This document shows, in pieces, positions 5 to 11,845 of a stretch of 64,000 nt of DNA. Both the position numbers and the translations under genes were made by a program. The notes under the pieces were generated by a model, which searched no databases, was not told where the DNA came from, and saw nothing but the letters and a program-made list of their open reading frames with translations. Origin of the DNA: a virus; the IMG/VR virus record IMGVR_UViG_3300042894_004766, positions 1-64,000 of that record; one strand, 5' to 3'. Each line of letters begins with the position of its first letter. The first letter of the stretch is position 1.

Positions 5-93
5 TAGTCTGTACGGGATTCGAACCCGCGTTACCTCCTTCGAAGGGAGACGTCCTGACCCACCGAGGTGAGTATCCACTAGACGAACAGACC
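5..93 (-). tRNA. tRNA-Glu-scaffold tRNA-like RNA; 7-nt loop CUUCGAA (UCG in the anticodon position); hairpin inserted in D-loop
   Basis: Reverse complement GGTCTGT TC GTCT AGTGG ATACTCACCTCGGTGGGTC AGGAC G TCTCC CTTCGAA GGAGG TAAC GCGGG TTCGAAT CCCGT ACAGACT A; no encoded CCA. Confidence 0.8.
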
Positions 94-182
94 GAAGTGT
101 CGTGTTTTGATTACACTAAAGATGAATTCTTGTATAAGAAGTACCAACTTGTCAACATTACAGAAATGACATTTACACTTAG

Positions 183-255
183 TAGCGGGAGAAGGACTCG
201 AACCTCCGACCTTATGGTTATGAGCCACACGAGCTACCTACTGCTCTATCCCGCG
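183..255 (-). tRNA. Initiator-type tRNA-Met (CAT)
   Basis: CGCGGGA...TGTGG CTCATAA CCATA...TCCCGCT A; 1-72 mismatch and A11-U24 typical of tRNA-fMet. Confidence 0.9.
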
Positions 256-260
256 ATATG

Positions 261-376
261 TAGTCTGTACGGGATTCGAACCCGCGTTCCTCTCTCGTGA
301 CTAAGAGAATGTCCTGTTTACCTTACTTTAATGCCGAAGCTTTTTGTTCAGTAAACATCCACTAGACGAACAGACC
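261..376 (-). tRNA. tRNA-Glu-scaffold tRNA-like RNA; long D-loop hairpin; 8-nt anticodon-position loop
   Basis: Same acceptor, T arm and D-stem as 5-93; D-loop insert TGTTTAC...GC TTCG GC...GTAAACA; arm TTCTCT TAGTCACG AGAGAG. Confidence 0.75.
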
Positions 377-411
377 GAAGAGTGTCGGAATTAAAACGCG
401 CAGCACTCTTA

Positions 412-455
412 TTTTGTTTGACAAAGATACGGTGACTTTTTTAATCTACCAAATC
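412..455 (-). promoter_or_regulatory. Bacteroidota primary-sigma promoter, 44-bp repeat copy 1
   Basis: GATTTGGTAGATTAAAAAAGTCACCGTATCTTTGTCAAACAAAA: TTTG (-33) and TATCTTTG (-7 TAnnTTTG). Confidence 0.85.
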
Positions 456-475
456 TTTTTTCATTTATTTTTTTG

Positions 476-573
476 TAGTCTGTACGGGATTCGAACCCGC
501 GTGTTCTCCTTAATTGCCGAACCGGCGAGAAGACATCCTATCTACCGAGGTAGCTCCACTAGATGAACAGACC
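476..573 (-). tRNA. tRNA-Glu-scaffold tRNA-like RNA; extra hairpin in anticodon arm; no canonical anticodon loop
   Basis: Same acceptor and T arm; D-loop insert CTACC TC GGTAG; arm TCTTCT C GCCG GTT CGGC AATTA AGGAGA. Confidence 0.75.
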
Positions 574-633
574 GAAGAGTTGTGCTTTCTTACACCACGA
601 AGCCGAGTATTTCACACGACGCCTACTCTTATT

Positions 634-677
634 TTTTGTTTGACAAAGATACGGTGACTTTTTTAATCTACCAAATC
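634..677 (-). promoter_or_regulatory. Bacteroidota sigma promoter, repeat copy 2
   Basis: Identical to 412-455. Confidence 0.85.
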
Positions 678-697
678 TTTTTTCAATTTTTTTTTTG

Positions 698-775
698 TGA
701 CCGAAGTTGGGTTCGAGCCAACAACTAGCGTTACTTCTATTTCAAGAATACTACTTTACATTAAGTTACCCGGCC
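698..775 (-). tRNA. Degenerate tRNA-like element, isotype unclear
   Basis: Acceptor GGCCGGG/TTCGGTC (three G-U pairs), D arm ACTT/AAGT, T arm GTTGG CTCGAAC CCAAC, irregular anticodon arm TTCT TGAAAT AGAA. Confidence 0.55.
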
Positions 776-779
776 TTAG

Positions 780-890
780 TAGTCTGTAAGGGATTCGAAC
801 CCATGTTTACAATCTCTCCATATACCAGGGCATAAAAGCGTGAGATTGTCGTCCTATTACCGAAGTAATATACCGCTAGACGAACAGACC
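780..890 (-). tRNA. tRNA-Glu-scaffold tRNA-like RNA; UUCG hairpin in D-loop; 8-bp arm closing a 25-nt loop
   Basis: GGTCTGT...TATTAC TTCG GTAATA GGAC G ACAATCTC[25 nt]GAGATTGT AAAC ATGGG TTCGAAT CCCTT ACAGACT A. Confidence 0.75.
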
Positions 891-1088: not shown

Positions 1089-1153
1089 TATTTCTTTATT
1101 AGAGTACAAAGATACAAAAGTTTTTTAATCTACCAAATATTTTTCAGAATTTT

Positions 1154-7077: not shown

Positions 7078-7494
7078 TTATGATTTGTAGAAATCTCCTT
7101 TTTCTTCTACGTATTTCAATCTTGCTTCTTCAGCTTGAGATCTTAGTTTAACATATTCTTTTCTAAGTAATTGAATTTGTTTTTCTTTTTGACTTGTTTC
7201 TAATACAACTTTGAAATCGATAACATTTTTAAGTTTTAAGTACCAGAAGAAGTTATTGATTGACTTTTGTCCGGTTTTTTTACCAACAAGAAATAATCGT
7301 CTTGCTAACTTTTTCTTTCCAGTTTGTGTTAAGTGATCAATCTTAAAGTTTATCCACTCTAAGTGTTCGTTTACTTCACCGTCAACTTTTATTACATATT
7401 TTTTATCAATTGCAACTTGTGTTGCTTTTACCATTAGATTTTTCAAGTTTACATCTAATTCATTTACTCCTGTGTTTGTTTGTTTTGTGTCCAT
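7078..7494 (-). CDS. Hypothetical protein with basic C-terminal coiled coil
   Basis: 138-aa ORF followed by a terminator. Confidence 0.7.
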   Translation of the reverse strand: MDTKQTNTGVNELDVNLKNLMVKATQVAIDKKYVIKVDGEVNEHLEWINFKIDHLTQTGKKKLARRLFLVGKKTGQKSINNFFWYLKLKNVIDFKVVLETSQKEKQIQLLRKEYVKLRSQAEEARLKYVEEKGDFYKS

Positions 7495-7551: not shown

Positions 7552-7584
7552 TTAAGTTGGACCTCTGATTACAATCTATCTCAT
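7552..7584 (-). CDS. Putative amber-containing leader peptide M-R-(TAG)-I-V-I-R-G-P-T
   Basis: AAATAAATAAACAAC ATG AGA TAG ATT GTA ATC AGA GGT CCA ACT TAA; same ATG-NNN-TAG-ATT context as 9508-9519. Confidence 0.55.
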
Positions 7585-8601: not shown

Positions 8602-9525
8602 TTATTGTTTATTTTTTAATAAGTTTAAAACTTGTTTACCTCTTTTATCTAATTGTTTGTATTTTATTTTAAATGAAGTACTTTCAATACCACCAAATAT
8701 CGCTGCATTAGAATGTAATTCACAAAGTGATGTTACTAATAGTGTAAAAACGGTTTCGATTGAGTTTTTTGTAACAAAGTCTTCTACTTCATCTGATTTA
8801 ATAGTATGAAATACCATATCTTTTAAGATTAAATCTGCAACTACTTTGTTATCAGAAATCTTAGAGAATGTATCAAATGATACTTGTGCGTGGTTTGGAA
8901 AGTGTCTTTTACCTTCTTCATCAATTATCATACAATATGCCTTCCCACAATCGTGCATTACTTGATATTCCTTAATATCTTCTAATGAATGTAAGTTGTT
9001 AAGTATAAACTCTTTATTATCTGTAAACCAAGTAGGTAACTTCCATTCAAATACTGGATTACTACTAGTTAAATCGTTAAAATACTTATTGACAGATATG
9101 CCGTGATCTAGTACACTTTGTGTATCAGTTTGAGGTGTATCAATCATATCAGAGATAACTTTCTCGTATGTTAGTTTTGATTTTTTACCTAAAAGTGGAA
9201 GATATGAAACTTTCTTTCTGACATCTTTATCTGCGTATAAACAAATAGATGTAAGTTCATCGTTTAAATCTGGTTCGTAAAATTTTGTGACTGAGGTAAG
9301 TTTGGATAACTTTAAGTATAAGTCATTTAATTCTTTTTCATTGTTTACTTGTAAACAGATGATAGAATTAGATGTAGTTTTCCATTCTTTAAATTGTTGT
9401 GGAAACTCGTATGCGAAGTCTGCAATTGAGTGTGTTGATTGTTGGCTCTGATAGCCTGGAGTTAAATCACTTCTAGTGATAACTACTAATTTTGCTTGGT
9501 CTTTGTTAATCTAAGTCATTGTCAT
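8602..9525 (-). CDS. Pth2-like peptidyl-tRNA hydrolase fused to an HD domain, with an in-frame TAG at 9511-9513
   Basis: Frame is open from 9510 to 8602: KLVVITRSDLTPGYQSQQSTHS...FYEPDL...LPLLG (Pth2-like), then HDCGK...HFPNHA (HD). The upstream ATGs (9525, 9519) are separated from it only by TAG. Confidence 0.8.
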
Positions 9526-9527
9526 AA

Positions 9528-9713
9528 TTATTTATTATTTTTTAAAAATTGTTGTTCTTTTTTAGTTAGACTCTTCATACCTTTTTCTGAAATTTTATCC
9601 AGTATTCGATTTAATTCGTCTTCTTTTTCTTTTCTTATTGAGTTAAATTCATAATCATCAATAAGTCGTTTTTCAACGTTTGTTTTAAATAGTTTTTTAA
9701 ACCAACTTAACAT
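9528..9713 (-). CDS. Small protein with DUF6576-like C-terminus
   Basis: LNRILDKISEKGMKSLTKKEQQFL. Confidence 0.65.
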   Translation of the reverse strand: MLSWFKKLFKTNVEKRLIDDYEFNSIRKEKEDELNRILDKISEKGMKSLTKKEQQFLKNNK

Positions 9714-9736: not shown

Positions 9737-9802
9737 TGGCTCTGGAGGGGAATGATCCCTCGTCTTCTGGTTTTAGAGGCCTTAGACTAACCATACAAAG
9801 CC
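9737..9802 (-). ncRNA. D-arm-defective tRNA-like RNA with CUA (amber) loop remnant and 11-nt segment complementary to the Pth2 amber site
   Basis: GGCTTTG TA TGGTTAGTCTAAGGC CTCTAAA ACCAG AAGAC GAGGG ATCATTC CCCTC CAGAGCC A; own TATCTTTG promoter (9814-9821) and TTTG (9841-9844). Confidence 0.75.
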
Positions 9803-9845
9803 GTTTTGTTTTACAAAGATACAACTAATTTTTAATACACCAAAT

Positions 9846-10394: not shown

Positions 10395-11648
10395 TTAGTT
10401 TAATTTAGCTCTGATTCCGGGCATATAAATCTCAATCAATTGTATCAATTCTTCTTTACACTCTGGAGTCAATGATTTATTTTTATTTTGATTCAACAAA
10501 ATCATAAATGAACTTACAACTTTATTAAATTTAAAGGCATCTGTAAAGTCAAATATAGTTTTCTTAAATGATTCTATATCAATAGTTTCTTCACCTGTTT
10601 TATCCAACCAAGTTTTCATTCTATTTATAAATCTTCTAATTCCAATTATATTTTCATCAGACCAAGAACCACCATCAAAGTAGTGACCAATAAACATCAA
10701 GTAAAATCTGATTTCATCTGGATCATATCCATCCAAACTAACTACATTTCCCTTTGATTTAGACATCTTTTCACCACCATTCAATATCATTCCTTGGTGT
10801 ACCAACTTATTAATTGGTTCTTCAAAGTCAATAAATCCAATATCATACAAAAACATTGTGATAAATCTAATATAAATCAAGTGCATACAAGCATGTTCTG
10901 AACCACCAACATACAAATCAACTGGTTTTGGTTTAATACCTTTCATCAAACAATAGATAATAGTATAAATAGAACTATCTACGAATGTGTCCATTGTATC
11001 TGTCTCACCTTCAATAGGAATAGGGCAACCCCAACTTCTTTGTCTTGATACACACCAGTCGTGTTGATTTTCCAACCAATTTCTTTGTGACTTTATTGTA
11101 GATTCTGGAAAGTCAATCTTATCCAAACCTGCAATCAATCTATCTTTATAATCTGTGATTTTGAAATACCATTGATTCAATGTTTTCTTTTCTACTTCTG
11201 TAGAACATCTTTCACATTTACCATCTTTTACTTGTTCTCTTGCCAATACAGTTTCACAACTGTTACAGAAGTCAACTTCACCATCTTTCTTATAAGCCAA
11301 ACCTTTATCATACAATTGTTTAAACAACCATTGTGTGTACTCAATATAGTTAGGATCCGAGGTAATCAACATTTCCTCGTATTGAGTATTCATGTTATCC
11401 ATCTGTATTCTAAAATTTTCTATATTTTCGTAGGTAACTTCTCTTGGATCTCTACCTACTTTTTTTGCATAGTTTTCTGCTGGCAAACCATGACTATCAT
11501 ATCCAAAGGGTTGAAAAACTTGTTCACCTTTATATCTCAAGTATCTACAGTAACTATCCATAATCGCATAGTTATACCAGTGTCCACAGTGCAAACCACT
11601 CCCAGAAGGATATGGGAAAAATGTTGCAATATATTTATAATCTTTCAT
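10395..11648 (-). CDS. Minimal leucyl-tRNA synthetase-like protein (no CP1 editing or C-terminal domain)
   Basis: FPYPSGSGLHCGH, GYDSHGLPAEN, QWYFKIT, DWCVSRQRSWGCPIP, TMDTFVDSS, KMSKSKGN. Confidence 0.9.
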   Translation of the reverse strand: MKDYKYIATFFPYPSGSGLHCGHWYNYAIMDSYCRYLRYKGEQVFQPFGYDSHGLPAENYAKKVGRDPREVTYENIENFRIQMDNMNTQYEEMLITSDPNYIEYTQWLFKQLYDKGLAYKKDGEVDFCNSCETVLAREQVKDGKCERCSTEVEKKTLNQWYFKITDYKDRLIAGLDKIDFPESTIKSQRNWLENQHDWCVSRQRSWGCPIPIEGETDTMDTFVDSSIYTIIYCLMKGIKPKPVDLYVGGSEHACMHLIYIRFITMFLYDIGFIDFEEPINKLVHQGMILNGGEKMSKSKGNVVSLDGYDPDEIRFYLMFIGHYFDGGSWSDENIIGIRRFINRMKTWLDKTGEETIDIESFKKTIFDFTDAFKFNKVVSSFMILLNQNKNKSLTPECKEELIQLIEIYMPGIRAKLN

Positions 11649-11845
11649 TTCTTTGTTTTTTTCTTGTAAAGTGACTTGTGTCAATTTTTAATTTTTTAAT
11701 TATTCTATAAATTTTACTTTCAATTAGTTTTGTGTGTTCTTGTTGTATATTTGTACAAATATCTTTACTATCCACTATGTTCCCTACTTATATTTTTAAT
11801 TTAAGCTTAGTTGCAAATATAATAATTAAATTTAATATATAAACT

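Follow-up and report, generated by a model that had tools for sequence, protein, structure and literature searches.

A candidate D-armless amber suppressor tRNA in the slot of a canonical tRNA(CUA), beside a UAG-gated Pth2-like gene of a giant lake phage

The mammalian mitochondrial tRNA-Ser(GCU/AGY) lacks a D arm, and nematode mitochondrial tRNAs also include D-armless forms. In the solved structure of human mitochondrial tRNA-Ser(GCU), what is left of the D-side strand is paired with the vestigial variable loop, and this helix stacks so as to lengthen the anticodon stem (Kuhle et al. 2022, PMC9427863). Our literature search found no paper on D-armless tRNAs outside mitochondria. Amber suppressor tRNAs have been described in large, stop-codon-recoded phages, where they were detected in ~40% of TAG-recoded phages; suppressors with non-canonical structures were expected to have gone undetected and possibly account for the rest (Borges et al., 10.1101/2021.08.26.457843). 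PTH2 is already known from jumbo phages (Iyer et al. 2021, PMC7824862), and the same literature search found no paper on UAG-gated PTH2 genes.

Here we analyze a 66-nt tRNA-like gene in the window, the first 64 kb of a 99.8-kb IMG/VR virus record from a giant lake phage with a GC content of ~29%. CheckV gives the record a completeness of 17%, which implies a genome of ~0.5-0.6 Mb, and relatives of the record reach 518 kb. The gene is on the minus strand, its RNA running from 9802 to 9737. Like the suppressors of recoded phages, it is phage-encoded, carries CUA in a 7-nt loop with U33, and belongs to a low-GC phage with a Bacteroidota-type host. Unlike them, it has no D stem and almost no anticodon stem, is missed by standard finders, and lies in a fragment that is not recoded and in which only two UAG clients are visible. 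It shares with mitochondrial tRNA-Ser(GCU/AGY) the replacement of the D arm by a short linker, and its proposed fold would likewise extend the anticodon stem, but it is found in a bacteriophage, has a normal T loop (U55, C56) and a GG that could still form the elbow, has a weaker anticodon-proximal stem, and has no known adapted EF-Tu or synthetase. Since it occurs in a virus record and not in a metazoan mitochondrion, we regard it as an analogue of the mitochondrial type and not a member. A three-way junction, a stemless D-loop analogue and a long helix that lies directly against a canonical T arm also recall the tRNA-like domain of tmRNA, from which the element differs in having C3-G70, a real anticodon loop and no mRNA-like domain, and in deriving from tRNA(CUA) and not ssrA. 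We rejected a tmRNA-like reading, as there is neither a G3.U70 pair nor a tag ORF. Compared with other modules of tRNA(CUA) and a UAG-gated Pth2 gene, the locus has the same gene pair and the same kind of UAG leader, with a tRNA partner that is D-armless. What is new is this D-armless partner, together with a common second non-canonical class that we call type B. We hold with moderate confidence that the element is a promoter-driven, remodelled D-armless amber suppressor that still decodes UAG.

The gene and its parts are as follows:

9737 to 9802, minus strand: D-armless tRNA-like gene with anticodon CUA ("type A"), recognized by its sequence, the Rfam model, the mitochondrial mode of ARAGORN and homologue alignment
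9796 to 9802, minus strand: 5' acceptor strand (nt 1-7), pairing with 9738-9744 (nt 59-65)
9788 to 9795, minus strand: 8-nt linker (nt 8-15) in place of the D arm, aligning with the canonical D loop
9762 to 9787, minus strand: proposed extended anticodon hairpin (nt 16-19/38-41, internal loop, nt 22-23/33-34, loop nt 24-32)
9772 to 9778, minus strand: anticodon-loop heptamer CUCUAAA, with the CUA anticodon at 9774-9776
9745 to 9761, minus strand: T arm with a 5-bp stem and a 7-nt loop (GAGGG / AUCAUUC / CCCUC)

A sequence-only reading of this DNA had described an intact acceptor stem and T arm, and both are confirmed. The acceptor stem GGCUUUG/CAGAGCC has 7 bp including one G.U, with a discriminator A (A73) at 9737, and no CCA is encoded at the 3' end of the 66-nt element. 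The 5' acceptor strand is invariant in every type A and canonical homologue. The 5-bp T stem is invariant in all relatives, and U55 and C56 of the 7-nt loop are likewise retained and invariant. T-loop positions 54/58 are A/U in the window, U/A in L013 and L014, and U/U in L010, states that look like a swapped tertiary pair. The succession CTCTAAA-ACCAG-AAGAC had been compared to the layout of an amber suppressor, and the canonical distance to the T arm bears this out: the CUCUAAA heptamer has U33, CUA at positions 34-36 and a purine at 37, and the motif YUCUAAA is kept in all type A, type B and canonical relatives. CUA occurs twice, as had been noted, at nt 18-20 and nt 27-29. The expected anticodon-stem strands AAGGC and ACCAG indeed fail to pair beyond two G-C pairs (G22-C34 and G23-C33), with C24.A32, A21.A35 and A20.G36 opposed, and the canonical 5-bp stem is absent. 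A closing stem of only two or three Watson-Crick pairs at the anticodon loop is a point against decoding. In the linker, the GG at nt 11-12 is a remnant of D-loop G18 G19 and is unchanged in alignments A2 and A4, where neighbouring positions vary.

The covariance model search proposed with the sequence-only reading gave a divided answer. The Rfam tRNA model (RF00005) aligns to the element end to end with 22.9 bits and E = 0.001 for the 99.8-kb record, a match beyond chance expectation, but the score falls below the gathering score of 29, and this too counts against decoding. ARAGORN in its standard/bacterial mode does not call the element and finds no tmRNA either; in its metazoan-mitochondrial mode it reports a "D-loop" (D-replacement) tRNA with anticodon CUA. 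A D stem of 3-4 bp is absent, its 5' strand being deleted relative to the canonical homologues. The stability of the single-sequence fold is no better than that of shuffles (z = -1.13), a further point against decoding.

Using the LeuRS-like protein encoded upstream as a search handle, we obtained 30 megaphage loci. Homologues of the element stand behind the same promoter in seven other contigs. Type A genes occur in L011 (identical), L010, L013, L014 and L017, to which a metagenome scan added L091, the only new type A found by that scan and an IMG/VR pattern scan together. Three sister phages carry a different CUA tRNA of 78-79 nt at the same place (type B), and a canonical cloverleaf tRNA(CUA), called by ARAGORN in every case, is found in L069, L079, L082, L085, L086 and L092. 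These six canonical genes share the 5' acceptor strand, the T stem and the CUCUAAA loop with the window element. Aligned to them, the element has a 7-column gap that takes in the 5' D-stem strand and the first part of the D loop; UGGUUA corresponds to the remainder of the D loop and GUCU to the former 3' D-stem strand, and the 5' strand of the anticodon stem lacks one base. By these comparisons the window copy goes back to a normal cloverleaf tRNA(CUA) of a kind widespread among large phages. This agrees with the earlier description of a D-arm-defective tRNA-like RNA of amber-suppressor descent, and the 7-column gap supports its caveat that TGGTTAG resembles an ordinary D-loop remnant. The ancestor would have lost the 5' D-stem strand (~6 nt) and one anticodon-stem nucleotide. 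Acceptor mismatches in L013 and L014 are ancestral because canonical forms have them too, and the ancestral mismatches at 4.69 and 5.68 have become pairs in the window lineage through changes in the 3' strand. Two other origins were considered and rejected: paralogy with the neighbouring phage tRNA-Gln(UUG), whose acceptor stem is unrelated, and an intron-containing tRNA (the 16-nt loop minus 9), for which the homologues give no support.

The type A copies also allow selection on the element to be assessed. Between the window and L011 there are 0 differences in 66 nt, compared with a synonymous p-distance of 0.349 in the adjacent LeuRS-like gene (P = 5e-13), and beyond the element substitutions reappear within ~8 nt of either end. 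Two further pairs are significantly conserved, the window and L010 (6/66 differences, P = 7e-4) and L013 and L014 (13/66, P = 2e-4). When sublineages are compared, only 2-4 changes fall in the 31 nt of the nearly invariant acceptor stem, T stem and anticodon loop. In the D/anticodon-stem region and T loop, in contrast, 16-19 of 35 positions differ; this equals or exceeds the neutral rate and counts against decoding. Taken together, the comparisons indicate that the element is not decaying neutrally and is under purifying selection. The sequence-only reading had named as its own undoing that homologues might be normal suppressor tRNAs of which this is a decayed copy. Normal suppressor tRNAs they are, but the identity of all 66 nt beside 35% synonymous divergence speaks against decay.

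Three structure models were counted on the five distinct type A sequences (alignment A4). In the extended hairpin (16-19/38-41 plus 21-23/33-35), 88.6% of cells are paired and both members of four pairs have changed; slid controls of the complete extended structure give no more than 58% pairing. Three of the doubly changed pairs are in nt 16-19/38-41, where they come from only three independent lineages, with a mismatch in L014. A mini D hairpin (10-12/18-20) is 86.7% paired with one pair changed on both sides, the other two pairs showing only G.U/G-C alternation opposite an invariant G. We retain the combination of this mini D arm with a short cloverleaf anticodon stem as an alternative only, since its changes are mostly one-sided and it rivals the better-supported 18-19/38-39 pairing. 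The helix proposed in the sequence-only reading, in which TGGTT (nt 10-14) pairs with AACCA (nt 31-35), can form, but with 62.5% paired cells and no pair changed on both sides we rejected it as a conserved feature. Covariation instead points to a remodelled fold, where the orphan D strand would pair with the variable loop and lengthen the anticodon helix. In L013 and L091 the minimum free energy (MFE) structure is the extended hairpin; in the window this hairpin is co-optimal with the MFE at -19.4 kcal/mol, and several alternative folds lie within 0.6 kcal/mol, which counts against decoding. Two more points on that side are that the covariation can be described as a coordinated 1-nt register shift and that L014 fits the extended hairpin poorly. 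In the proposed structure, the orphan 3' D-stem strand would pair with the former variable loop to make one long anticodon hairpin abutting the T arm, with ~9 stacked layers and an 8-nt linker that keeps the GG in contact with the T loop. As modelled, nine layers would be about equal to the anticodon stem, 26.44 pair and D stem of a normal tRNA.

The element is flanked by a promoter-like motif and by the following genes:

9813 to 9844, minus strand: Bacteroidota-type promoter-like motif (TTTG ... TAnnTTTG), with ~10 nt between its end and the start of the RNA
10395 to 11684, minus strand: upstream neighbour encoding a 429-aa LeuRS-like catalytic core without an editing domain (TIGR00396 and PDB matches)
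9528 to 9713, minus strand: 61-aa ORF (Pfam DUF6576) between the tRNA-like and Pth2-like genes
8602 to 9525, minus strand: Pth2-like gene with a C-terminal domain, 302 codons, starting ATG ACA ATG ACT TAG ATT
7552 to 7584, minus strand: leader ORF M-R-UAG-I-V-I-R-G-P-T-stop, upstream of a 138-aa gene at 7078-7494

The 32-nt motif (Bacteroidota -33/-7 pattern) is present in 5 copies in the window compared with 0.01 expected, all on the minus strand; three copies precede tRNA-type genes (cluster 5-890), one is at 1106-1137, and one precedes the 66-nt element. The motif is conserved in relatives. Judged by this motif, the element shares its promoter class with the phage's other tRNA-type genes. 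There is no terminator directly 3' of the element, which suggests that it is probably co-transcribed with the co-oriented genes downstream, namely the DUF6576 ORF, the 302-codon Pth2-like gene, a 120-aa ORF, an HD_4 protein, the short leader and the 138-aa ORF. The DUF6576 ORF is found in only 6 of 80 related loci and is thus not core to the module. Upstream, the LeuRS-like core scores 367 bits with TIGR00396 (cut-off 548), and its best PDB match is 3ziu. Because it adjoins only 8 of the 80 Pth2 loci, this gene too is outside the conserved module. A role for it as the dedicated charging enzyme is not supported by that adjacency, and elsewhere the gene lies beside tRNA-Leu clusters.

The Pth2-like gene begins 212 nt beyond the end of the element (first ATG at 9525) and has an in-frame UAG at codon 5 (9511-9513), after which the first ATG, GTG or TTG is 121 codons downstream. 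The N-terminal domain of the protein is predicted to have a PTH2 fold (pLDDT 90), and the best Foldseek/PDB matches of this domain are all PTH2 peptidyl-tRNA hydrolases; the Pfam match is sub-threshold. In type A phages the gene has a dN/dS of 0.14-0.23, which suggests that it is being translated. Every homologue in the first locus set, before the wider search, starts with ATG, 1-3 codons and TAG in frame. In the wider set of 80 Pth2 loci, taken from 185 relatives, TAG is the first in-frame stop upstream in 77 and TAA in none, and in those 77 the TAG lies 1-9 codons before a conserved K-L-V-x-I-T-R strand. An ATG stands 1-4 codons before the TAG in ~72 of the 80. The TAG is followed mostly by ATT, GTA or ATA (Ile/Val), with GTT and CTT also occurring, which fits translation through the UAG better than restart after it. 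Re-initiation at the codon after the TAG is unlikely, this codon being ATG in only one locus (L189) of the 80. The Pth2 gene of L079 contains a second, internal in-frame TAG, so that UAG serves as a sense codon in that gene. No alternative start is present in the gene of the window, L011, L013 and L091. In L010, L014 and L015, however, translation could bypass the UAG from an ATG where the Pth2 domain begins, and this counts against decoding. The second client, the M-R-UAG leader, is identical in type A relatives; in distant leaders the UAG is at codon 3-5 and the peptide ends in RGP, RPP or KPP followed by a stop.

A tRNA(CUA) is found within 3 kb in ~61 of the 80 Pth2 loci: 37 are canonical, 5 type A, 17 type B and 2 others. 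ARAGORN finds the 37 canonical genes, often as the sole tRNA there, and a covariance model with inspection adds the rest. From this distribution, the 66-nt element in type A phages is seen to fill the slot of a canonical tRNA(CUA). Type B genes, which ARAGORN also misses, are 77-81 nt long. They have an apparent acceptor stem of 8 bp and T stem of 4 bp, a long hairpin replaces the D arm, and the pair that closes the 9-nt anticodon loop is not Watson-Crick. Compensatory change at 19 of 22 predicted pairs indicates that type B is a solid structured RNA. We found no other candidate tRNA with a CUA loop in the 99.8-kb record or in a 180-kb relative (G008); since the record is only ~17% of the genome, a canonical tRNA(CUA) may lie elsewhere. 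TAG recoding beyond the two clients is not visible in the 100-kb record (G000) or in G008, which counts against decoding. Global TAG recoding was rejected as an explanation, as readthrough adds no coding coverage in these two and only a marginal amount in a 508-kb relative (G014).

The sequence-only reading had also pointed to an 11-nt segment of the RNA that an mRNA might bind. Such a partner is found at the client UAG:

9505 to 9515, minus strand: mRNA segment CUUAGAUUAAC around the client UAG, complementary to nt 12-22 of the tRNA-like RNA (9781-9791)

Nucleotides 12-22 form 10 Watson-Crick pairs and one G.U with CUUAGAUUAAC, and a run of 11 is reached in only 0.2-0.5% of shuffles (P ~0.002-0.005). 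The match is confined to the sublineage of the window and L011. In L010 it shrinks to 9 nt and in L014 to 6 nt, while L013 and L091 lack it altogether, though the mRNA sequence there is the same. The canonical and type B partners of the module have no comparable complementary segment. We take the complementarity to be real and specific to this lineage. One might suppose that nt 12-22, including the first CUA, have been recruited as a guide that makes the element an mRNA-addressed, client-specific suppressor tRNA. The RNA might then hold the suppressor on the message that it serves, or cover the Pth2 start region until tRNA processing has taken place. We regard this as very improbable; if true, it would exceed three-base decoding, and an mRNA-addressed suppressor tRNA is described nowhere.

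The favoured reading, a suppressor that still decodes, would work in the following manner. The element would be transcribed along with the downstream genes, processed by RNase P and RNase Z, given its CCA and charged by a synthetase; the charged RNA would then read UAG in both clients, as codon 5 of the Pth2-like gene and within the M-R-UAG-IVIRGPT leader. We propose that UAG gating of the Pth2-like gene and the leader restricts expression of these clients to conditions in which suppression works. Beyond the points against decoding given above, we know of no D-armless tRNA that functions with bacterial EF-Tu and ribosomes. A rival reading is a selected tRNA-like RNA that no longer decodes and acts instead as an element for processing or stabilizing the operon transcript (an RNase P/Z entry site), as a decoy for a synthetase or for host nucleases that target tRNAs, or as a regulator of the Pth2 mRNA. 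We judge this unlikely, even though conservation is strict in the acceptor/T-arm "top half" and the GG, with the anticodon stem almost gone, the missing terminator makes co-transcription with the downstream ORFs probable, the Pth2 start region has its 11-nt complement in the RNA, and the window holds other tRNA-scaffold RNAs with non-standard arms. Retention of CUCUAAA across sublineages despite a variable flanking stem is hard to explain without codon reading. Furthermore, the element sits in the slot held by a bona fide tRNA(CUA) in ~60 related loci, the UAG clients remain intact, and the complementary segment is not conserved in L013 and L091.

A functionless relic of a canonical suppressor tRNA, still decaying, is quite unlikely in our view. 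It would account for the normal suppressor tRNAs among the homologues, the deleted D-arm strand, the eroded anticodon stem and the score under the Rfam cut-off, as well as for the acceptor mismatches in L013 and L014, the hypervariable D region between sublineages and the use of the standard code in the genome fragment. It fits poorly with the frozen 66 nt next to a diverged gene and the two other conserved pairs, with a promoter that has been retained, and with amber-gated clients under purifying selection; the acceptor mismatches are ancestral and have been repaired in the window, and the helix changes are compensatory. The conformational switch of the sequence-only reading, in which a UGGUU/AACCA helix encloses both CUA triplets and is opened by mRNA binding to the 11-nt segment, is in our estimate very improbable. 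This helix can form in the window at 0.5 kcal/mol above the MFE, the complementarity at the Pth2 UAG is unlikely to arise by chance, and all 66 nt are frozen between the window and L011. Across the family, however, the helix shows no covariation, and it is a different helix, the extended hairpin, that has the four doubly changed pairs. L013 and L091 lack the helix, the second CUA and the complementarity in the presence of the same mRNA sequence, and the module's canonical and type B partners do without such a segment.

If the element does decode UAG, it would be, to our knowledge, the first D-armless tRNA outside animal mitochondria and one working on a bacterial ribosome, and it would mean that a phage can strip a tRNA down to a three-way junction and yet use it. 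The occurrence of two non-canonical classes, the 66-nt type A and type B, in the slot of the canonical gene bears on the suppressors that are missing from recoded phages. As ARAGORN misses both, covariance models built from types A and B would let recoding surveys be repeated. Minimal and possibly orthogonal suppressor scaffolds of this kind would also be of practical interest for genetic-code expansion. The same module is carried by a cultured phage, Tenacibaculum phage pT24, which makes the circuit testable at the bench. There, a canonical tRNA(CUA) is encoded at 191520-191593 and the Pth2-like gene, near record position ~194080, starts with ATG AAA TAG ATA; its GenBank CDS is N-terminally truncated.

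A second non-canonical class of CUA tRNAs (type B), found in sister phages where the D-armless gene of the window would sit, was compared at the following related loci.

L012:6409-6487, type B tRNA with a CUA anticodon, missed by ARAGORN
L015:6851-6928, type B tRNA with a CUA anticodon, missed by ARAGORN
L169:735-811, L156:2652-2732 and L153:2775-2855, type B CUA tRNAs, examples among 15 further loci

These tRNAs, at L012, L015 and the 15 further loci, are 77-81 nt long and were not detected by ARAGORN. The D arm is replaced by a 5-bp hairpin whose loop contains UGG, the acceptor and T stems apparently have 8 and 4 bp, respectively, and the anticodon loop has 9 nt. Covariation was seen in 19 of the 22 pairs of the type B alignment, and in every case a UAG-gated Pth2-like gene, with its in-frame UAG just after the ATG, lies near the tRNA.

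The same gene was examined in a named phage and at two loci where no CUA tRNA was found nearby.

L208 (Tenacibaculum phage pT24, NC_049383.1), features at 2447-2582 and at 396-474 / 763-841
L137:2830-2990 and L144:2830-2990, leader and hairpin before the UAG-gated Pth2-like gene

The annotated CDS of HYP10_gp293 in pT24 begins at an internal ATG, while homology and an ATG AAA TAG ATA start lie ~45 codons upstream of it. This phage also carries two genes annotated as "tRNA-Undet", each with an 8-bp anticodon stem and a UAUAUUA loop. At L137 and L144, the stretch just upstream of the Pth2-like gene holds a promoter-driven leader (ATG ATG TAG ATT), then a long hairpin and a T run; this arrangement may work as an attenuator responsive to amber suppression.

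Reading of TAG beyond the gate was considered in two relatives.

L079:7135-7479, minus strand, Pth2-like gene with a second in-frame TAG
G014 (IMGVR_UViG_3300049793_000366), 460-508 kb, region of low ORF coverage

Since the second TAG of L079 falls within the conserved Pth2-like domain, where it aligns with a Glu of the L082 locus, UAG is a sense codon in this phage. The G014 phage has a canonical tRNA(CUA). Under the standard code, the share of its 460-508 kb region covered by ORFs of 150 aa or longer falls to 0.24-0.39; reading through TAG gives 0.41-0.53, while TGA readthrough changes almost nothing. This region could be either locally TAG-recoded or gene-poor.

Other tRNA-like genes and an aminoacyl-tRNA synthetase-like neighbor were also found.

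L058:1501-1569 (G016:25688-25756), D-armless tRNA-like gene of 69 nt
Window 5-890, minus strand, tRNA-scaffold gene cluster with a common acceptor stem and T arm
Window 1106-1137, minus strand, tRNA-type promoter motif in a fifth, perfect copy, with about 1000-1100 lying downstream of it
Window 10395-11684, minus strand, LeuRS-like protein of 429 aa

The L058 gene shares an identical T stem with the D-armless gene of the window, and its acceptor stem is of the tmRNA type (GGGGCUG/CAGCUCC, including G3.U70). It also has an extended hairpin that abuts the T arm and an 8-nt loop, UUCCUACC. A T run follows the gene, which may encode a minimal tmRNA-like or alanine-accepting RNA. In the window 5-890 cluster, the acceptor stem and T arm are the same in every gene, while the D loop holds an inserted hairpin that differs from gene to gene and the anticodon region is enlarged in each. 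ARAGORN made 0 calls among these genes, their Rfam scores are 14-28 bits, and the conserved promoter motif lies upstream of three units. The LeuRS-like protein of the window, which has neither the CP1 editing domain nor the C-terminal domains, is kept in 30 megaphage contigs at 59-97% identity, and in distant relatives its gene adjoins tRNA-Leu gene clusters.
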